From IMG/VR virus record IMGVR_UViG_2675903650_000007, positions 1-8,487 of that record: 8,487 nt of DNA; one strand, written 5' to 3'. Below, piece by piece: positions 1 to 8,487 of the stretch. The notes below the pieces were generated by a model. It ran no database searches. It saw only the letters and a list, made by a program, of their open reading frames with translations, and was not told where the DNA came from. This DNA is from a virus (lineage: Duplodnaviria; Heunggongvirae; Uroviricota; Caudoviricetes). Every line of letters begins with the position of its first letter. Positions within the stretch are counted from its first letter, which is position 1. A program made the position numbers and the translations under genes.

Positions 1-8
1 ACGCCATA

Positions 9-32
9 TCACTCTCCTTTGATGCGAATGCC
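9..32. repeat. 24-bp direct repeat, copy A (3' junction of Ea22-like paralog 2)
   Basis: TCACTCTCCTTTGATGCGAATGCC is identical at 9-32 and 852-875. On the minus strand it encodes GIRIKGE, the stop codon and the SD of the next gene. Confidence 0.85.
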
Positions 33-530
33 TGTTGCAATGCTGTTTATGATGCTGTCAGTGCATGGGGTAGAAAGCTGGGCATCTCCAGCAATTTTCA
101 TGACCTCAACATCTGCATATCGAATACCGAGGTGTATCAGACCGGCTATGCCTGACTTAAGTCGAACATTTTCCATAAACAGATCTTTTTCCCGCTGTTT
201 AGCGGCTTCCAACTCCATCGACAATTTTTCCAACTGCTCTTTATGCTTCTTGTATTCCTGATACGCGTGCCAAGACTGACCTTTGCGCACACTATCAGTG
301 ATATCAGCAACCTGCTCCGGTGTTAGCGTGGTCAGTGGCTGTGCTGGAAAAATCATCACCTTCCCGGCATCCCAATCAAAACCCGCCTGAATTGACTGAA
401 CCTCAACTGATGGTGTTGAACCGATGCGACCAGGCGAATGAACAACGATCGTTACATCCATATCGCGACGATGGCTGTGGTTGTTGGACAAAATACGATT
501 CACCAACTCAGAAAATTTGGAAAATTTCAT
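9..530 (-). CDS. Ea22-like family prophage protein, paralog 2 (173 aa from ATG at 528-530; the six-frame ORF extends to 659)
   Basis: Minus-strand ORF. Start chosen at MKFSKF because GAGGGA sits 5 nt upstream and the ATG overlaps the upstream gene's stop (ATGA). The C-terminus ...GIRIKGE* is identical to that of the 249-aa Ea22-like protein at 852..1601, encoded by the same 24-bp DNA. Central coiled-coil-like segment ([32 protein letters not shown]). Family assignment is from memory. Confidence 0.5.
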
Positions 531-850
531 GCTGATCCCTCTTTTTCTCCCCGGATAATTCTGTTGCACACATCCACACACTCGTCGCAGATGAAAACGG
601 CGTCCCCAGCAATTAACTTTTTGACGGCGTACTGGGATTTGTTGCAGAAGCTGCAACAAAGTGTTCGCCTGACTGATAAGGATGGAGCGCCAGATGTCAG
701 CCGCTCCATATCGTTCTTGCGACGCAATATCACACGGCTGAACTCAACCAGTTTCTCCGGGGATATCTCCTCCTCCGTAGCAAGCGCCTCTAATCGTTCG
801 AGTATGTGGAAGGCTTTTTTCTGGGTAATTGCAGAATGCGATGTGGTCAT
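527..850 (-). CDS. Small protein with C-terminal ClpX-type C4 zinc-finger domain (107 aa)
   Basis: Minus-strand ORF. Start at ATG 848-850 with GGAGAG 4 nt upstream, chosen over the in-frame ATG at 892 which has no good SD. The C-terminal segment [35 protein letters not shown] closely resembles the N-terminal zinc-binding domain of ClpX (CSFCGKSQHEVRKLIAG..ICDECVDLCNDII), including all four Cys. Stop overlaps the start of the downstream gene (ATGA). Confidence 0.7.
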
Positions 851-851
851 C

Positions 852-875
852 TCACTCTCCTTTGATGCGAATGCC
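852..875. repeat. 24-bp direct repeat, copy B (3' junction of Ea22-like paralog 1)
   Basis: Same 24-mer as 9-32; flanking sequence diverges on both sides. Confidence 0.85.
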
Positions 876-1601
876 AGCGGCGCGGGAATCATTCCATCGC
901 TTTACTTCTTCACGAATTACGTCAATGCATTCTTTCGAATCCATTAGGTAATCTTCATCAAAAAGACGTTCCTGTTCGTTTTCTATCGCAACAATGATTG
1001 CTTCAACTAACTTTTGTGCCTGAGAACCACTTTCTAACTCTGCAATGCGCTTCTCTGCGGCTTCCAGATTCTCGCGCATATCGTCAACGTACTCGACCAG
1101 AGATCCGCCAGCAGGAATTTCGCATTCCTCGACCAGTTGGAAGTAGATATCAGCTGCGGCCCGTGTGTTGCTATGCCTAGCGTCGCCCATCTCACCTTCA
1201 CGAAGAGCATCGCGTTCGGCGGTAAGATTGGCTATTTTGCTGTCTTTGCCTTCCAGCTCAACGCGCAGCCTCCCAACCGTAAGCGCAATATCCTCGTTCT
1301 CCTGATCGCGGCTTTTGATGTATTGCAGGTTTCTTTCCCGTTCATCCAGCAGTGCCAGCACGGTAGCCGGGTTAGCCTCTGCTATGAATTCAGCGTTTGC
1401 ATAAGCCTGAGCATCTGTTTCAACCAGGCAGTTAACGTGACATTCTGCAATTACGCCACCGGGTTCTCCTTTCCATTTTTGACAAACAAAAACTCCTGTT
1501 AAATTGCCGTGTTGGTTAACAGATGTATGCCCTACGATGTAGCTTCCTTTAGTTGCTTTCTCTGCCTTTTCACGCAGTGCCTGATAGTTAATCTCGCTCA
1601 C
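852..1601 (-). CDS. ead/Ea22-like family prophage protein, paralog 1 (249 aa)
   Basis: Minus-strand ORF with GTG start at 1599-1601 overlapping the upstream stop (GTGA) and GGAGG 7 nt upstream. N-terminus [19 protein letters not shown].., acidic coiled-coil middle, C-terminal ..GIRIKGE* shared with 9..530. Family assignment is from memory of E. coli prophage annotations. Confidence 0.6.
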
Positions 1602-1822
1602 TCTTCATCCTCCAAGTCGGCAACGGCGTCCATCACATCAGAACCGCGAATAACCTCAAAAGCACGGCAGGCCATTTGAAATACCAGTTGCTCTTGCGGG
1701 TGAGGAGACTCCCAATATTTGAAGCCTGGGCGATGCGTGTACCCCATCATTGAATAAAAATCACCAGCAAGCTTAATCGCGGCATCGACAAGCTCTCTGT
1801 TAGTCATTCTTTTTCCGCTCAC
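1598..1822 (-). CDS. Hypothetical small prophage protein (74 aa, acidic C-terminus)
   Basis: Minus-strand ORF. GTG start at 1820-1822 overlaps the upstream stop (GTGA) and has GGAGG 6 nt upstream. An alternative ATG start at 1805-1807 would give 69 aa. No recognised domain. Confidence 0.5.
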   Translation of the reverse strand: MSGKRMTNRELVDAAIKLAGDFYSMMGYTHRPGFKYWESPHPQEQLVFQMACRAFEVIRGSDVMDAVADLEDEE

Positions 1823-2250
1823 TGGTTGCCTCCTTTGCGAAGCTGGGCAGCAAAGTCAACTAACCACTCAGTCATTTCAACCTTCCCTACCAGGTCTGAA
1901 CCAGGGTACATACAGCAATCACTCTGCGCCGCTTTGAAATCCTTATACTCATATTCTTGGGCCACCAGATTTTTTGCAGCTTCTATAGCAGCATCCACCC
2001 CCTGCGCCCGGACTTCAGCCAGGAAAGCATCAGTGGCTGGCATATTTCCTGTTGCCTTCATTGCCTCCAAAATAACCAGAACGCCATCTCGCCCAATCTC
2101 CTCGCAGATAACCTCGGTGCTGTCGCCAACAACATCGCAAAATGCCTGAACTGCTTTACGAGCCAGCGCATCTTCCGCCCTGTGAAACGCCTCGCGGTTG
2201 AAATTTTCATATCCCGTCATTGGACCGGCAATATAAACTCTCACCCTCAC
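1819..2250 (-). CDS. Hypothetical protein with nucleoside 2-deoxyribosyltransferase-like (DUF4406-type) N-terminal motif (143 aa)
   Basis: Minus-strand ORF. GTG start at 2248-2250 overlaps the upstream stop (GTGA) and has AGGAGG 7 nt upstream. The N-terminus VYIAGPMTGYENFNREAF matches the K-IYIAGPMTG motif of DUF4406 / deoxyribosyltransferase-like phage proteins, but the remainder is longer and did not match my recollection of that family. Confidence 0.55.
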   Translation of the reverse strand: MRVRVYIAGPMTGYENFNREAFHRAEDALARKAVQAFCDVVGDSTEVICEEIGRDGVLVILEAMKATGNMPATDAFLAEVRAQGVDAAIEAAKNLVAQEYEYKDFKAAQSDCCMYPGSDLVGKVEMTEWLVDFAAQLRKGGNQ

Positions 2251-2639
2251 TCCATCACCTCCTGAAAGTTTCCCCGATAGAACGCCAGCACACGCTGCAT
2301 AACTTCGCTCCTCCTGCTCTCACGACAAATTATGTTCTGCCGTCTGTTGTAACGACGTATTTCTCCGTCAGGTAACTTTCGAATCAGTGTCGGGTCAGCA
2401 GCCTTCTCCGGTGTCTTACGCCATACGCGATACGCCTGCTCTGATGGAAATACCCCGCAACCAGAGAGCCAGACATCACCACTGGCCGCAAGCGCACCAG
2501 ATAAACGACGAATAGCGGTCTTACTGACACCCGTTTTATCTGCCAGTTGTCGAAAAGTTTCTCGTCCGCTCAGGCGCACGAATTCCACAATGCGCGCCTT
2601 CACTTCTTCCCGCTCTTCTGGTGTAAATACTTTTGCCAT
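2247..2639 (-). CDS. Hypothetical prophage protein (130 aa)
   Basis: Minus-strand ORF. ATG at 2637-2639 with GGAGG 5 nt upstream; the ORF track's TTG at 2654 is rejected. Basic, possibly nucleic-acid-binding (..KTGVSKTAIRRL.. resembles an HTH). Stop overlaps the next start. Confidence 0.55.
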   Translation of the reverse strand: MAKVFTPEEREEVKARIVEFVRLSGRETFRQLADKTGVSKTAIRRLSGALAASGDVWLSGCGVFPSEQAYRVWRKTPEKAADPTLIRKLPDGEIRRYNRRQNIICRESRRSEVMQRVLAFYRGNFQEVME

Positions 2640-2654
2640 AAGCGCCTCCGGCAA

Positions 2655-3380
2655 TCACTTTTCCGACACAATACGACCGGATGAATCGACAATCTGTCGA
2701 ACAATATCCCGGTGCTTGTTCAGCTCCCGCAGCGCGGCGCAGACTCGCTCCCACTTCTGAACCTGACCTTTTGCCCGGCGCAGCTCGCGGTTAGCCACAT
2801 GCAGCGATGGTAAAATCAGACCATCCGGATGTTTTCTGGTGAACGACGGCTGTGACTGCACTGTGACCGCCACACTTTCCGTTTTTATTTCTTCCTGTGT
2901 TTCTGCTTCCCGGACAGGTAACGCAACACCTGCTGGCTGAGGAAAGGCTTTACCATCGGTTTCCGCTACGGATGCAGCTTCCGGCTCTGCCGGTAAATCA
3001 GCGCCCGGTATGCAGTAACGAAATTTACCGCCCTGATTCACGCGAATCAGACGCCCTTTGCTGATTGCCATGGCCAGCGATGAATTCGCCCGGCGGGAGG
3101 TAATCCCGAACATCAGTGCCAGCTCATCCGCCGTTTGTGGGCCATGTTGTTCAATCGCCTCAGTCAACATTTGCGCTGTCACTTTCGGTACCGGTGACAC
3201 CGGTTCACTTTCACCAGCCTGAATCAGCCACCACATCGAACCCTTGTTATCCGCTTCACCGCGGCGCTTCAGTTTCCACAGTTCGTTGACCGCATCTTCA
3301 CGGCTGATTCCAAGGCGGGCCGCCACTACCTGTGAAGAGGCTCTTTTCAGTGCTTTCAGTGCGTCAAATACGGTTTCCAT
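2655..3380 (-). CDS. Hypothetical prophage protein with two tandem winged-helix-like segments (241 aa)
   Basis: Minus-strand ORF. ATG at 3378-3380 with GGAGG upstream. Two similar segments (..[25 protein letters not shown].. and ..[28 protein letters not shown]..) suggest an internal duplication of a small DNA-binding module. Sits immediately after the helicase-loader gene, where lambdoid phages carry accessory nin/ren-type genes. Confidence 0.6.
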
Positions 3381-3409
3381 TAAAATTTCCTCCGGATAAA
3401 AATTACTTC

Positions 3410-4150
3410 TCAGTTCCTGTGCTGGCTGACGTTCGGACGCCAGCTCTCCCAGTTAAACGTCACCCAGCGACCACCGTTCATGGACATGCGGTCCATTACC
3501 CGCTCGCCGAGAAGTGTATTCATCGCTGCATGATTAAGATTTGTCAGCATCCCCACACTGAGTAACGATGCCGTTCTACGGTCAACAATCTGATTCAGCG
3601 TGACCTGCTCATTACGCGTATCCCGTTGCATGCCAATTTCATCCAGTACCAGCAGGTCAACGCCACACAATCCCTGCAAAAATTTTTCGCCCGAGTTTTT
3701 GTTGTCGTAGCTGCCATGTAACGCTAGCATCACATCCGCCACTGTTATCACAATCACACTGCGACCTTTCGCCAGAAGGTGGTTGCCAATAGCCGCCGCC
3801 AGGTGGTTTTTTCCTGTGCCAGGCCTGCCACTGAAAACAAAATTCGTACAGCCGCCTTCCAGCTCTGCCGCAATGGATTTCGCCTGACTCAGGGCATGGC
3901 GCTGACCATCGTTCTGCACCCGGTAGTTACCGAACGTACACTTCCGGTGAAGCGGCTGGATACCGGAACGGTTAATGATTTTTTCAACCCGCGTCTGATG
4001 ATTCAGACGATTAACCTCCTCGCTTCGCTTACGCCCTTCAGCAAGCTGCCATTCCCGCCACTCCGCCACCGTACGGTACGGAGGGATTGCATCCTGCGGC
4101 ACAAATCTGCTGACTCTTGCCAGAACACCACCTGACGTAATGTTTTTCAT
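3410..4150 (-). CDS. DnaC-like replicative helicase loader (AAA+ ATPase, IstB/DnaC family; 246 aa)
   Basis: Walker [16 protein letters not shown] and Walker B LLVLDEIG motifs in the arrangement typical of DnaC and the Rac YdaV-type loader. ATG at 4148-4150, 6 nt after the stop of the initiator gene. Confidence 0.9.
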
Positions 4151-4156
4151 GATGCG

Positions 4157-5110
4157 CTACCCCCTGAACCCCGGCGGAATTTCGGTATCCGGTTCAGAAA
4201 TATGATTCACGCAACGCTGCGCGGGCGAACGCCCCAGGCGAATTACCAGTTCATCCCATTTTTCCCGGAGTTTTGCCGGACTCATGATGTTTTTTACCCA
4301 GAACGAATCCCGTTGAACACGCCCAAACATTTCACAAATCTGTCGGTGACTACGTCCATCCAGCATACGCATCATGCGCACATCATTCGCCCAGGTCGTC
4401 CAGTTAGGCTCTCTGGGGCGTGATACCTCCCCATCATCACTGGCGGCCTGTTCATACAACGCAACAACCCGTCCCCAGATCCACTGTGCACACGTCAAAT
4501 CCTCCCGGGTTCCCCACTGTCGCTTCGGTACATTCCAAGTATGCGCATCCGGGTGTTTCTCCAGAAATCGCTCAACTGGTGATGATTGTTTTTCGTCCGG
4601 CAGTGAAACGTCTGGACAAGAAGATCTTTTATCTGACGGATCAGGTTTTAATACTGACGGATCGGGGTCAATCATCGCCCCCCTAATCCGCAGTTTTTTA
4701 TCAACAGTTGATCCATCAACATTTGACGGGCCAACCGTTGAGGGGGCAATATTTGACGGGTCATTTTTTGCCGGGCTAATTTTTCTTTTTGGTTTATATG
4801 CCTCACGCGCCGCCGCTGCAGCTGCTTCAAGTTTTTCCACATTAAGCCGATAGATATTGCTTACGTTACGCCCACCGACCTTACGCTCTTCCTTCGTCAG
4901 CCAGCCCTCTTTCGCCAGTTCTGCAATAGCAGATTTAACGGTGGATTCACTTCTTGCACCGATCTGACGCCGGATAGTTTCAATGGCAGGCCATGACACG
5001 CCCTCGTCATTGCTGTAGTCTGCAAGACGGGCCATAACTGCCACCCTGGATAAGATCATGCCGGTGAAGGCGCACCCTTCCCAGACAAGACCATGAAGCT
5101 TGCTGCTCAT
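4157..5110 (-). CDS. Replication initiator / replisome organizer, O-like (317 aa from ATG 5108-5110)
   Basis: Minus-strand ORF directly upstream of the DnaC-like gene. N-terminal winged-helix-like domain, Ala-rich and Pro/Asp/Ser-rich linker, C-terminal domain. The linker DNA contains an iteron cluster and AT-rich tract, as lambda ori sits inside O. The ORF track's GTG at 5125 is rejected in favour of the ATG with GGGGG 4 nt upstream. Confidence 0.8.
   Translation of the reverse strand: MSSKLHGLVWEGCAFTGMILSRVAVMARLADYSNDEGVSWPAIETIRRQIGARSESTVKSAIAELAKEGWLTKEERKVGGRNVSNIYRLNVEKLEAAAAAAREAYKPKRKISPAKNDPSNIAPSTVGPSNVDGSTVDKKLRIRGAMIDPDPSVLKPDPSDKRSSCPDVSLPDEKQSSPVERFLEKHPDAHTWNVPKRQWGTREDLTCAQWIWGRVVALYEQAASDDGEVSRPREPNWTTWANDVRMMRMLDGRSHRQICEMFGRVQRDSFWVKNIMSPAKLREKWDELVIRLGRSPAQRCVNHISEPDTEIPPGFRG
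4634..4800. repeat. Putative origin of replication: iteron cluster plus AT-rich tract inside the O-like gene
   Basis: Direct repeats TGACGGATC (4634-4642, 4655-4663), TGACGGGCC (4724-4732), TGACGGGTC (4754-4762), a degenerate TGAGGGGG (4739-4746) and an inverted near-copy GATCCATCA (4710-4718). Immediately followed by AT-rich tcattttttgccgggctaatttttctttttggtttatat (4763-4800). Confidence 0.6.
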
Positions 5111-5132
5111 AAAACCCCCGAACACCGTGCTT

Positions 5133-5558
5133 TTAGTGCATCACCACAGCATTCCCTGCCGGGCCGCCGCGATTTATCTGGTCATACAAAACGACCGCTG
5201 ACGCAACAAAATCGTCGACATCCTTCACCAGCCGATCCCGCCGTTCGACAATCTCCCGGTAATACTCAGAACTGTGACTGCGCATACGGGCCACCAGCAA
5301 AGGCGGCATCGCCTTTTCGATCGCCGGTAACAGCGCCTGAATTTTTTCAACAGCATCAGGCGTATCCTTCTCCACCCAGCGGAAAATTTTCTGGGTATTA
5401 CGGGCCAGGGCTTCCGGATGGCTGTCGTCGTACAGTTCCGGGAACGTCATCCCAAGTTCGAAATAAGTCCGGGCTATTTCAGCTGCAGGCACTTTCTCAC
5501 CATCAGGATATGCCCAGGCATTCATCGCCATGCGGATGTGTTCATGTTTGATTTTCAT
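5133..5558 (-). CDS. YdaT-like protein (Rac-prophage YdaT family) in the cII position (141 aa)
   Basis: Minus-strand ORF immediately downstream of the cro-like gene, start overlapping its stop (ATGA at 5555-5558). The N-terminus MKIKHEHI.. matches my recollection of E. coli Rac YdaT. It does not resemble lambda CII. Confidence 0.65.
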   Translation of the reverse strand: MKIKHEHIRMAMNAWAYPDGEKVPAAEIARTYFELGMTFPELYDDSHPEALARNTQKIFRWVEKDTPDAVEKIQALLPAIEKAMPPLLVARMRSHSSEYYREIVERRDRLVKDVDDFVASAVVLYDQINRGGPAGNAVVMH

Positions 5559-5818
5559 GAATCAACTCCCAGCGCGGGTTGTGTGTTAGCCTGATAGTCA
5601 ACAGGTATGCCATCGGTTGGGTTGGGGTAAGTACTGCTATCAATCTCGTGCGGGGTCACTACCCACCCTGTTGCTTCACACCAGCGTAAAACTTTCCCCC
5701 CCGTAAGTTTCGCCCGTCCAGTAATAACATGGCTTACCATCCCTTGGGTTACCCCAACAATTTCAGCAAAATCTTTCTGGGTTATACGGGAATGATGCAA
5801 ATATTCTCCAAGATTCAT
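5555..5818 (-). CDS. Cro-like / YdaS-family HTH regulator (87 aa)
   Basis: First gene of the minus-strand operon, divergent from the repressor gene. HTH-like segment ITQKDFAEIVGVTQGMVSHVITGRAKLT. RBS GAGGTG 4 nt before the ATG at 5816-5818. Confidence 0.7.
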   Translation of the reverse strand: MNLGEYLHHSRITQKDFAEIVGVTQGMVSHVITGRAKLTGGKVLRWCEATGWVVTPHEIDSSTYPNPTDGIPVDYQANTQPALGVDS

Positions 5819-5847
5819 TGTTCACCTCATGTTATGTGACCATGAAT

Positions 5848-5890
5848 ATTAATAGCATTGTTATTTTTAAAAGTAAATAGCACTGCTATT
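5848..5890. promoter_or_regulatory. OR-like operator pair and divergent promoter region (PR-like on minus strand)
   Basis: Two 15-bp palindromes 25 bp apart: AATAGCATTGTTATT (5851-5865) and AATAGCACTGCTATT (5876-5890). On the minus strand a near-consensus -10 TATTAAT (plus coordinates 5848-5854) and -35 TTTACT (5872-5877) with a 17-bp spacer overlap the two operators and point into the cro-like gene. A plus-strand repressor promoter is expected between 5885 and 5920 but cannot be placed confidently. Confidence 0.65.
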
Positions 5891-5925
5891 TCAAAGAGAT
5901 TAATAATCTTATTAGAATTGAAGGT

Positions 5926-6426
5926 ATGAAAAGAAAACCCCTGTCAGAGATCGACCTGCAAGCCGCCCAGAGACTGAAAGAAATCTGGACGACGAAAAAA
6001 ACTCAACTTGGGTTAACCCAAGAGCGTGCGGCAGAAATTCTGGGTTTTTCGACACAAGGGGCAGTAAGCCATTATCTAAATGGTCAGACACCTTTAAATC
6101 TAGAGGCTGTTATCAAGTTCGCTGGGTTGCTACAAGTTCCGCCTGAGTCAATTAGACCAGATATGGCAGACTTGTTACGAATTGTAAGGATGTACCCCCA
6201 AGAACTGCAGCAGGATAATGTTGTCGCTTTACCCGCAGAGATGGAACAATCGGAAAACGAACTTCCGTTTAATATAGAACCTATAGAGCGAGATTTGATC
6301 CAGACGTTCAGGGCTTTCCCAAAAGAAGACAAAGAGAAAATGCTTAAGGAAATGAAGGAGAAAAAAGAATCAATTGAAGAAACCGTTGCGCGGTGGCTAG
6401 AGGCGCAAAAAGGTCTTCGCGCCTAA
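5926..6426 (+). CDS. Prophage repressor, XRE-family HTH, no S24 peptidase domain (DicA/RacR/PaaR2-like; 166 aa)
   Basis: Divergent from the cro-like gene across an operator-containing intergenic region. HTH motif LTQERAAEILGFSTQGAVSHYLNGQ. The C-terminus is Lys/Glu-rich helical and lacks a LexA/CI-type autocleavage domain. Followed after 17 nt by the antitoxin gene, so the three genes are probably co-transcribed. Confidence 0.8.
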   Translation: MKRKPLSEIDLQAAQRLKEIWTTKKTQLGLTQERAAEILGFSTQGAVSHYLNGQTPLNLEAVIKFAGLLQVPPESIRPDMADLLRIVRMYPQELQQDNVVALPAEMEQSENELPFNIEPIERDLIQTFRAFPKEDKEKMLKEMKEKKESIEETVARWLEAQKGLRA

Positions 6427-6443
6427 TCTGAGGAGGTTAGAAC

Positions 6444-6635
6444 ATGAGTACAGTCCTTTCCCCGATAATTTCAGAATTTGAAACAATCGAACAAGAAAAC
6501 AGCTATAACGAATGGTTACGCACCAAAGTGGCAGCAAGCCTCGCAGACCCCCGTCCTGCAATTCCGCATGACGAAGTAATGGCTGAAATGGAAAACCTTA
6601 TTGCGCAAATAGCTTCGACGAACAGGAGTGAGTAA
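6444..6635 (+). CDS. Small antitoxin (PaaA2-like) of a ParE-type toxin-antitoxin pair (63 aa)
   Basis: Strong RBS GAGGAGG 6 nt upstream of the ATG. Small acidic protein (..SEFETIEQENSYNEWLR..) whose stop overlaps the toxin start (TAATG at 6633-6637). The sequence resembles my recollection of PaaA2 from E. coli O157 prophages. Confidence 0.75.
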   Translation: MSTVLSPIISEFETIEQENSYNEWLRTKVAASLADPRPAIPHDEVMAEMENLIAQIASTNRSE

Positions 6636-6925
6636 TGCTGCCCATTTTATGGCTACCTTCTGCGCGTGATGATTTGCGTCAGATCGTAGCCTATATTGCC
6701 AAGGAAAACCCTCCCGCTGCACGTAGACTAAAAATACGCATTGAAACATCAGTTTTGTCACTTACTGAACACCCTTACCTGTATCCACCAAGCGAAAGAG
6801 CTCTAGGCCTTCGTGAGATAGTGACCCATCCTAACTACATAATACTTTACCGAGTAACAGCATCTAACATCGAGATCGTAAATGTAGTTCACTCACGAAG
6901 GCAGTATCCAAACAAAAGCTGTTAA
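6635..6925 (+). CDS. parE: ParE/RelE-superfamily toxin (ParE-like; 96 aa)
   Basis: Size and motif pattern typical of ParE toxins (LP-LW..A..DL..I..YIA.-NP.AA..L...I......L...P.-G......L-LRE.V-...YI--YRV....IEI-.V-HSRR). Translationally coupled to the preceding antitoxin gene. Confidence 0.8.
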   Translation: MLPILWLPSARDDLRQIVAYIAKENPPAARRLKIRIETSVLSLTEHPYLYPPSERALGLREIVTHPNYIILYRVTASNIEIVNVVHSRRQYPNKSC

Positions 6926-6939
6926 TCATTCCTACCAAC

Positions 6940-6964
6940 AACCACCTTCGGGTGGTTTTTTTTT
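6940..6964 (+). terminator. Rho-independent terminator of the repressor-antitoxin-toxin operon
   Basis: Perfect hairpin AACCACC-TTCG-GGTGGTT (stem 6940-6946 / 6951-6957, GNRA-like loop) followed by a T-run through 6964, 15 nt after the toxin stop codon. Confidence 0.8.
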
Positions 6965-6980
6965 CTTACCTCCAAAAAAC

Positions 6981-7022
6981 AATAGCATTACTATTTACAG
7001 AATAAAATAGCAGTGCTATTGT
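6981..7022 (+). promoter_or_regulatory. OL-like operator pair with PL-like promoter
   Basis: Second pair of the same 15-bp palindrome, again 25 bp apart: AATAGCATTACTATT (6981-6995) and AATAGCAGTGCTATT (7006-7020). Candidate -35 TTTACA (6994-6999) and -10 TATTGT (7017-7022) with a 17-bp spacer overlap both operators and point rightward. Confidence 0.6.
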
Positions 7023-7199
7023 TTATTCATCACCCACCCTCCCCACAGAACGCAGGGCAATACTTCGAGTTACCAGGCAGTGGTCAGGGGGTAAGTAGCC
7101 AGCCCGAGGCGTAAGAACATGACGGCAGGGTTCAACTTTAATAACTATGCAGCAGGTTTTTGTTCCGCTACCCCGGCGTTAAGGGGAAATGAGGTCAGC

Positions 7200-7352
7200 A
7201 TGGATACTATCGATCTTGGCAACAGCGAATCTCTGGTATGTGGCGTGTTCCCCAACCAGGACGGTACGTTTACCGCGATGACGTATACCAGAAGCAAAAC
7301 GTTTAAAACTGAAGCTGGCGCGCGTCGCTGGTTAACCAGAAACACTGACTGA
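7200..7352 (+). CDS. YdaF/YdfA-like small prophage protein (50 aa)
   Basis: RBS GAGG 5 nt before the ATG at 7200. MDTIDLGNSESLVCGVFPNQDGTFTAMTYTRSKTFKTEAGARRWLTRNTD resembles the ~51-aa first gene of the Rac/Qin PL-type operons as I recall it. The ORF track's longer version from ATG 7119 has no SD. Confidence 0.6.
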   Translation: MDTIDLGNSESLVCGVFPNQDGTFTAMTYTRSKTFKTEAGARRWLTRNTD

Positions 7353-7363
7353 TGAGGTTGACG

Positions 7364-7702
7364 ATGGAATTTAAAGATTTACCTCCTTCAATCCAGGAGA
7401 TTGCAGCACACACACTTCGTCATCGTCTGAACGAACTTGAATTGGAATCGGTAACAAAAAAAGACACTGATAATATGGCTCGTAATGTGCGCGATGCGTT
7501 TACTGGGCTGTTTTCAGATACAGCTTTAAATATCCATGGCACAGAGGATACAGCAAAACAATTTGCAGAAAAAGAAGTGGAAGATCCCAGTTCAAAGAGC
7601 CAGAAACAGCCAAACAACCATGAAATTAACGAACTGCTTCTGGCAACAGGCTTCATAAATATTAACGAATATGAACGCCGTAAAAAAATGTTATCTGATT
7701 AA
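7364..7702 (+). CDS. Hypothetical acidic prophage protein (112 aa)
   Basis: ATG at 7364 with GAGG 5 nt upstream; an in-frame ATG at 7352 overlaps the preceding stop and would add 4 aa. No recognised domain. The 3' end overlaps the convergent gene 7691..7885 by 12 bp. Confidence 0.55.
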   Translation: MEFKDLPPSIQEIAAHTLRHRLNELELESVTKKDTDNMARNVRDAFTGLFSDTALNIHGTEDTAKQFAEKEVEDPSSKSQKQPNNHEINELLLATGFININEYERRKKMLSD

Positions 7703-7885
7703 TCCATCAAGATATCTTTTTAGCATCAGCGTTTCTACGTTATTAAAACCATCAGATTTTAACATAGCTTCGATTCGCTGATTTAAATTGCCAACTAACT
7801 GTTGATACTGAGTAGATGGAAGCATGTGTACCAGCTCCTTGAGAACACAATAACATGCACCAAGTTTTAACTCCTGCTCTGACAT
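7691..7885 (-). CDS. Hypothetical small protein, convergent to the PL-like operon (64 aa)
   Basis: Minus-strand ORF with start ATG at 7883-7885 and GGAGGA 4 nt upstream. MSEQELKLGACYCVLKELVHML.. has no recognised family. The longer ORF-track version (88 aa, to 7957) lacks an SD. Confidence 0.45.
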   Translation of the reverse strand: MSEQELKLGACYCVLKELVHMLPSTQYQQLVGNLNQRIEAMLKSDGFNNVETLMLKRYLDGLIR

Positions 7886-8227
7886 TTTATCCTCCATTGA
7901 GGTTACTGGTTGAGAATGGAGACCTCTCGTGACAGCGTGTGGTCGTGCGCCGGACACGGATAAGAATCCGGCACTGACAGTTTACTGAAAGGATATTTCC
8001 CTGAAAAGTCAGACCATAACGCGAAAGCGCACGGCGAGGTAGCTGGTTCATAGATAGCCTGTCGTTAAATTTTCGTCGACCGTGCGCTTCCGGTTGTGGC
8101 AATCCGCGAAATGGCGCGGCGGTAAGTATGGCTGGGGTTTCCTCCATTGCTCCAGAAAATGCACCGGGTTGTCAGGTTGACCATACGCTTAAGTGACAAC
8201 CCCGCTACAACGCCCTCTGTTATCAAT

Positions 8228-8285
8228 TTTCTGGTGACATTTGGCGGTATCAGTTTTACTCCGTGACTGCTCTGCCGCCCTTTTT
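8228..8285 (+). ncRNA. dicF: DicF-like small regulatory RNA
   Basis: tttctggtgacatttggcggtatcagttttactccgtgactgctctgccgcccttttt matches the ~53-nt DicF sRNA of the E. coli Qin prophage almost base for base, from memory with about one difference, including the GC-rich 3' stem and U-tract. Confidence 0.8.
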
Positions 8286-8290
8286 AAAGT

Positions 8291-8442
8291 GAATTTTGTG
8301 ATGCGGTGAATGCGGCTCAGCGCACGCGGAACAGTTAAAACAAGCGGTCTTTTACGGGCGTAACGGGAATGCTCTGTATCCGGCGTTAATTGTTAACTGG
8401 TTAACGTCACCTGGAGGCACCAGGCACCGCATCACAAAATTC
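8291..8442. repeat. 18-bp perfect inverted repeat enclosing 116 nt, immediately 3' of DicF
   Basis: GAATTTTGTGATGCGGTG (8291-8308) is the exact reverse complement of CACCGCATCACAAAATTC (8425-8442). On a DicF read-through transcript this would form an 18-bp dsRNA stem. Confidence 0.7.
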
Positions 8443-8487
8443 ATTGTTGAGGACGCGATTGTCACGAACGGTGCAATAGTGATCCAC

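Follow-up and report, generated by a model that had tools for sequence, protein, structure and literature searches.

A DicF small RNA copy with a conserved leader in a mosaic early-left operon of a lambdoid prophage

In Escherichia coli K-12, the small RNA (sRNA) DicF is derived from the dicBp polycistronic transcript, which starts upstream of ydfA; RNase III cleavage gives rise to a 190-nt species, RNase E generates the 5′ end of the 53-nt RNA, and experiments found no internal promoter (PMC10448788). Pairing with ftsZ involves the 3′ part of DicF and pairing with xylR its 5′ end (PMC5069750), while manX, too, is paired via the 3′ end (PMC5861419). Multiple prophage contexts of dicF were described by Balasubramanian et al. 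(PMC5069750), and four DicF orthologues from different prophages of O157:H7 were reported as produced (PMC10448788). DicF, its processing, and several of its prophage contexts are therefore already known, and the significance of the locus described here is slight beyond its annotation, i.e., as a genuine DicF in a common mosaic variant of the early-left operon with a conserved precursor leader. The locus lies in a stretch of viral DNA of 8,487 nucleotides (IMG/VR record IMGVR_UViG_2675903650_000007, positions 1 to 8,487), which was analyzed as a whole and is referred to below as the window.

The window and the dicBF operon of the K-12 Qin prophage share the DicF terminator, a 340-nt leader with a hairpin, a ydfA-like first gene, and a structured spacer between dicF and dicB. 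On the other hand, the window differs from K-12 in a G12A substitution in DicF, another cassette in place of ydfB-ydfC, a non-DicA repressor with its own operators, a dicB that is separated from DicF by IS100, and a PaaA2-ParE toxin-antitoxin pair that stands between repressor gene and PL-like promoter. Of the features of a K-12-type operon, ydfA as the first gene and the conserved ydfC-dicF leader were found, whereas ydfB/ydfC, dicB directly downstream, and DicA with its operators were not. The immunity type is not that of DicA and dicBp in K-12, although the layout is analogous. Window positions 1 to 8459 share 99.988% identity with a prophage of strain DETEC-S792, and S1-CAM-02-A is another strain that carries this prophage. 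The DETEC-S792 copy adjoins rspB, which is the Qin attachment site and the same chromosomal site as that of K-12 Qin, and it continues with dicB, a DUF1482 (ydfD-like) gene, an exonuclease gene, xis, and int. The DETEC-S792 prophage and that of the O104:H4 strain 2011C-3493 have the same cassette of a 112-aa and a 64-aa ORF between the ydfA-like gene and DicF, and in both an intact dicB stands right after the spacer, without the IS100 junction of the window.

An Rfam scan of the whole window gave DicF (RF00039) as the sole match above threshold, at 8229 to 8280 on the plus strand, with 77 bits (gathering score, 48), an E value of 3.8e-16, and coverage of model positions 1 to 52 of 52. The feature as a whole extends from 8228 to 8285 (plus strand) and consists of 53 nt in the K-12 form at 8228 to 8280 and a T-run at 8281 to 8285. 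Alignment with K-12 dicF and its flanks gives a single base change within DicF, from G12 to A at window position 8239; the remaining 52 of the 53 bases are identical (98%), and positions 13 to 53, which comprise the 3′ pairing region for ftsZ and manX, are all the same as in K-12. The near identity to K-12 DicF that was claimed in an initial annotation of this DNA was thus confirmed, with the ftsZ-pairing part unaltered. The terminator, a stem at 8243 to 8279 (ΔG = −15.9) followed by TTTTT at 8281 to 8285, is intact, and the layout is that of DicF, in which an RNA of approximately 53 nt begins with a single-stranded 5′ part and ends in a Rho-independent terminator hairpin and U-run. As judged from its sequence, the segment from 8228 to 8280 is a bona fide and ordinary copy of the DicF sRNA.

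The stretch upstream of DicF, from 7889 to 8227 (339 bp), contains plus-strand ORFs of just 32 and 39 aa. In the Qin prophage of K-12 MG1655, 340 nt without a gene separate the ydfC stop (4042) from dicF (4383), so that an ORF-free stretch of 340 bp normally belongs to the operon; it had been taken for a difference from K-12, but the K-12 spacer is equally 340 nt long, ORF-free, and homologous. The conserved untranslated DicF leader (7927 to 8227, plus strand), which is the homolog of the ydfC-dicF spacer, is 87% identical to K-12 in the MAFFT alignment, and 92% identity to K-12 is obtained with blastn for 7944 to 8459. The only variable patch of the leader is a run of 25 nt at approximately 8134 to 8162, which differs from K-12. 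Folding predicts a long hairpin at 8014 to 8099 (plus strand), with 23 paired positions in the lower stem, in the window and in K-12 alike, and this hairpin is a putative RNase III substrate in both. A 190-nt species that ends at 8280 to 8285 would begin at approximately 8091 to 8096, which is within the 3′ arm of the hairpin. Apart from window position 8207, the 65 nt that precede DicF do not vary among K-12, phage Tritos, DETEC-S792, and the window; the site at which RNase E generates the 5′ end is among them, and the sequence around that end is identical to that of K-12. Because the hairpin is the same and these 65 nt are invariant, the suggestion that the 5′ processing context of DicF differs from that in K-12 is not supported, and we infer from the alignment that this context is conserved. 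The long ORF-free leader accordingly belongs to the DicF precursor, in which it is conserved, and is no sign of rearrangement.

On the minus strand of the leader, a strong hairpin at 8159 to 8210 (ΔG = −19) is followed by TTTT. This T-run is located inside the patch that differs from K-12, and no T-run is present at the matching position of K-12. The hairpin could serve as a terminator for transcription from the dicB side.

The first gene of the operon is a ydfA-like gene of the DUF1391 family (7200 to 7352, plus strand; 50 aa; PF07151, E = 1.9e-27) with 82% nucleotide identity to K-12 ydfA. Two ORFs form the cassette that follows, one of 112 aa (7364 to 7702, plus strand) and a convergent one of 64 aa (7691 to 7888, minus strand), and they overlap tail to tail by 12 nt. 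The match of the 112-aa ORF to phrog_2151 (E = 1.8e-55) covers just positions 1 to 101 of 212, i.e., the N-terminal half, and the ORF is 61% identical over 102 aa to a 212-aa protein of the O157:H7 86-24 prophage, with residues 1 to 49 identical and divergence thereafter. The 64-aa ORF, which is annotated as the hypothetical protein WP_001295058.1, matches phrog_4987 over positions 1 to 64 of 64 (E = 3.3e-49). Neither ORF has a match in Pfam, NCBIfam, or PADLOC, and their PHROGs are families without an assigned function only. In DETEC-S792 and O104:H4, PGAP annotates only the first 50 codons of the 112-aa ORF, as a truncated or partial pseudogene.

The neighbors of DicF are thus as the initial annotation described them, with a ydfA-like gene, a 112-aa ORF, a convergent 64-aa ORF, and an ORF-poor stretch of approximately 340 bp. 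Its term "rearranged operon" holds insofar as ydfB-ydfC are missing and other ORFs occupy their place, but it overstates what is merely a cassette swap in a variable slot. The value of 33% obtained for 7353 to 7926 against K-12 is alignment noise, and ydfB-ydfC are absent; by this comparison, the exchange of the ydfB-ydfC cassette for the two predicted ORFs of 112 and 64 aa is the only upstream difference in gene content from K-12. The full cassette together with DicF was found in 152 of 5426 complete E. coli genomes, and its carriers include the O104:H4 outbreak strain 2011C-3493; in the complete E. coli genomes, the first 163 nt of the cassette were found in 869 and K-12 ydfB-ydfC in 2311. 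The prophages of O157:H7 strains 86-24 and 4276 have the same architecture, in which a ydfA-like gene is followed by a cassette with a convergent gene, the leader, DicF, and dicB. In 86-24, the order is ydfA-like gene, 212-aa ORF, convergent 69-aa ORF, leader, DicF, and dicB, whereas in 4276 the plus-strand ORF is absent and the ydfA-like gene is followed by a convergent 171-aa ORF, the leader, DicF, and dicB. Both convergent ORFs are unrelated to the 64-aa ORF, and in particular no similarity was found between the latter and the 69-aa ORF of 86-24. A predicted minus-strand accessory gene in the slot between ydfA and dicF is a recurrent theme in the loci compared; the slot, as seen in these alignments, is a variable site in lambdoid early-left operons, and the cassette of the window is a recurrent mosaic variant. 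The element that varies is hence a swappable accessory cassette located between ydfA and the leader.

The sole sigma-70-like site that the promoter scan detected within 6900 to 8487 is TTTACA-17-TATTGT with a TG (6994 to 7022, plus strand), in which the −35 element TTTACA is at 6994 to 6999 and the −10 element TATTGT is at 7017 to 7022. This PL-like promoter is the putative counterpart of dicBp. It is flanked and overlapped by two operators with the palindrome AATAGCAnTGCTATT, at 6981 to 6995 and 7006 to 7020, and the same palindrome is present at two OR-like operators in the divergent intergenic region of the repressor and Cro-like genes, at 5851 to 5865 and 5876 to 5890. Four sites are thus found in the window, as against 0.03 expected by chance, and the two sites of each pair are spaced by 25 bp; the predicted operators form a classical OR/OL layout. 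The prophage repressor of 166 aa (5926 to 6426, plus strand) contains an HTH_3 domain (E = 1.7e-9), no peptidase S24 domain was found in it, and its similarity to DicA is weak and C-terminal only (25% over 51 aa). We infer that this repressor holds the functional place of DicA or CI with a different immunity type. Like DicA, it may be relieved by an antirepressor rather than by RecA-mediated cleavage, and the PL-like promoter is probably repressed by this repressor of the prophage itself. Residues 106 to 160 of the repressor gave a faint, sub-threshold Pfam match to Tad5. The segment from 6444 to 6966, which separates the repressor gene from the PL-like promoter, encodes an antitoxin of PaaA2 type with 63 aa and a ParE toxin with 96 aa, and this pair appears to be cotranscribed with the repressor gene. 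A strong terminator at 6940 to 6966 ends the repressor-PaaA2-ParE unit, and the PL-like promoter is located just downstream.

The promoter scan predicted no sigma-70-like site on the plus strand from 7023 to 8487. The hairpin and T-run scan found no strong intrinsic terminator on the plus strand from 7022 to 8228 and only weak, imperfect sites of a hairpin with T4 at approximately 7511 and 7865, the terminator of DicF itself being the only strong one; terminator scans are insensitive, as a simple scan missed the DicF terminator, which the custom hairpin and T-run scan recovered. With no internal promoter and no strong terminator predicted, read-through followed by processing is the best explanation. 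We assign a probability of roughly 80% to the reading, drawn from the sequence and from what is known of K-12, that DicF is produced by PL-like read-through and K-12-like processing in the early-left operon of a lambdoid prophage related to Qin. Transcription of this operon would start from the PL-like promoter at 6994 to 7022, which would be off in the lysogen via the two overlapping operators. Upon derepression, the transcript would extend across the ydfA-like gene and the 112-aa ORF, pass the 64-aa ORF in antisense, and cover the conserved 300-nt leader, and it would then halt at the intrinsic terminator of DicF or continue past it. By analogy with the K-12 experiments, RNase III would cut the hairpin at 8014 to 8099 to yield a precursor of approximately 190 nt, and RNase E would form the 5′ terminus of the 53-nt RNA, at 8228. 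The mature DicF would then repress ftsZ and manX through its unaltered 3′ half.

Several other readings of the locus were weighed against this one. The match could be a chance resemblance or a degenerate, functionless remnant of DicF, for which only the single substitution at position 12 speaks; this reading is refuted by the Rfam score and the K-12 alignment, and the full-length coverage of the model at E = 3.8e-16, the identity of 52 of 53 bases, the intactness of both the terminator stem and the T-run, and the recurrence of the exact 58-mer in 152 complete genomes leave it with practically no probability. The initial annotation raised the possibility that DicF needs its own promoter, with read-through across the convergent gene as the alternative; it is the latter that we judge best on the sequence. 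A promoter in the leader or the cassette that acts independently of the PL-like promoter is very improbable, since none is predicted on the plus strand from 7023 to 8487, none was found experimentally in K-12 (PMC10448788), and the leader is otherwise homologous to that of K-12. The points that favor such a promoter are that the convergent 64-aa gene might hinder read-through and that the 25-nt patch of the leader is unlike K-12, together with an extra operon promoter proposed in an older study, which was placed upstream of dicB and not of dicF (PMC10448788).

It is unlikely, too, that DicF is intact yet effectively silent, as a passenger relic in a prophage whose PL transcription is stopped within the cassette by convergence, Rho, or cryptic terminators. 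The tail-to-tail arrangement of the cassette ORFs with its 12-nt overlap, the two weak hairpin sites on the plus strand at approximately 7511 and 7865, and the long untranslated stretch, on which Rho could load, are consistent with such a block. However, both weak sites are imperfect with four Ts only, K-12 makes DicF despite an equally long untranslated stretch (PMC10448788), and DicF orthologues of different O157:H7 prophages were reported as produced (PMC10448788); moreover, DicF and the leader hairpin stay conserved from one cassette to another, and the arrangement is maintained in 152 genomes as well as in several other convergent forms. Transcription of the 64-aa gene could also collide with that from the PL-like promoter or form an antisense duplex. 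A rather improbable extension of this idea is that the 64-aa gene gates the output of DicF, by collision or through an RNase III-sensitive duplex with the PL precursor, and that G12A and IS100 add to this effect, so that the locus would provide DicF alone as a regulator, with a bias toward ftsZ and manX and without coupling to DicB or xylR. If the antisense gate were real, the amount of DicF would depend on the accessory cassette that occupies the ydfA-dicF slot. For the minus-strand promoter of the 64-aa gene, the only candidate, recognized by eye, is a weak TTGACT-17-TTCAGT at approximately 8012 to 7984, which is below the threshold of the scan.

The spacer between dicF and dicB (8288 to 8445, plus strand) is 87% identical to that of K-12 and is closed by a perfect 21-bp stem, in which 8288 to 8308 pair with 8425 to 8445. 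All 21 of the 21 pairs are kept in six loci, and the three positions that vary do so by G-U wobble only; the predicted stem is likely an RNase III substrate on read-through transcripts. A sub-threshold match to the Salmonella sRNA STnc100 (RF02076) was obtained for 8292 to 8438 of the spacer (37.4 bits; threshold, 47).

What is genuinely unusual at this locus is an IS100 at the 3′ side, which the earlier annotation missed. Positions 8460 to 8487 (plus strand) are the left inverted repeat of IS100, an element of the IS21 family, and correspond to the IS100 end that adjoins istA; a comparison copy of IS100 (L004) ends on the right in a matching inverted repeat and is flanked by a target duplication of 5 bp. 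With none of the dicB loci compared does the homology extend beyond 8459, and position 8460 corresponds to the region of the dicB ATG in locus L001, K-12, and Tritos; the insertion precedes by 2 nt the position that the dicB ATG has in an otherwise identical prophage, and no dicB is present directly downstream within the window. The dicB Shine-Dalgarno sequence GAGG (8449 to 8452) is stranded on the DicF side of IS100. The junction between the DicF spacer and IS100 was found in none of the 5426 complete E. coli genomes, and no match to it was obtained in GTDB representative genomes. Since IS100 leaves the DicF terminator and the 21-bp spacer stem untouched, DicF maturation should be unaffected by the insertion. 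Coexpression of DicB with DicF is probably lost, so that IS100 would uncouple the toxic dicB.

The G12A substitution is located in the 5′ pairing region of DicF, and the targets known from K-12 therefore need not all be retained, whereas the unaltered positions 13 to 53 mean that the sequences pairing with ftsZ and manX are intact. Duplexes of DicF with its targets were computed in this analysis with RNAduplex. For ftsZ (−29 to +26), the core pairing is predicted with either allele, the energies being −38.5 and −36.6 kcal/mol. K-12 DicF positions 5 to 17 form a perfect 13-bp duplex with xylR (+8 to +20) of −20.3 kcal/mol, and the A12 allele places an A-C mismatch in the middle of this duplex, which changes the predicted energy to −14.5 kcal/mol; the predicted loss from A12 is similar for pykA. 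G12A is thus predicted to weaken the pairing with xylR and to leave that with ftsZ, and as a natural variant it is usable for probing target-specific pairing, xylR versus ftsZ. The A12 58-mer is the minority allele, with exact matches in 152 records as against 3055 with the K-12 allele. A linkage between G12A and the cassette, which was suggested by the count of 152 for both, was rejected because the O104:H4 prophage combines the cassette with the K-12 G12 allele and O157:H7 strain 4276 combines A12 with a different cassette.

The position of DicF itself is occupied differently in E. coli O121:H19 16-9255 (L006), where a different sequence of similar length, at approximately 2890 to 2965, is located between the conserved leader and the dicF-dicB spacer. 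This sequence has no Rfam match to DicF. It contains a GC hairpin of its own (GGCGGGTATC...GATACCCGCC) and a T-run, and it may represent an alternative sRNA in the same slot.
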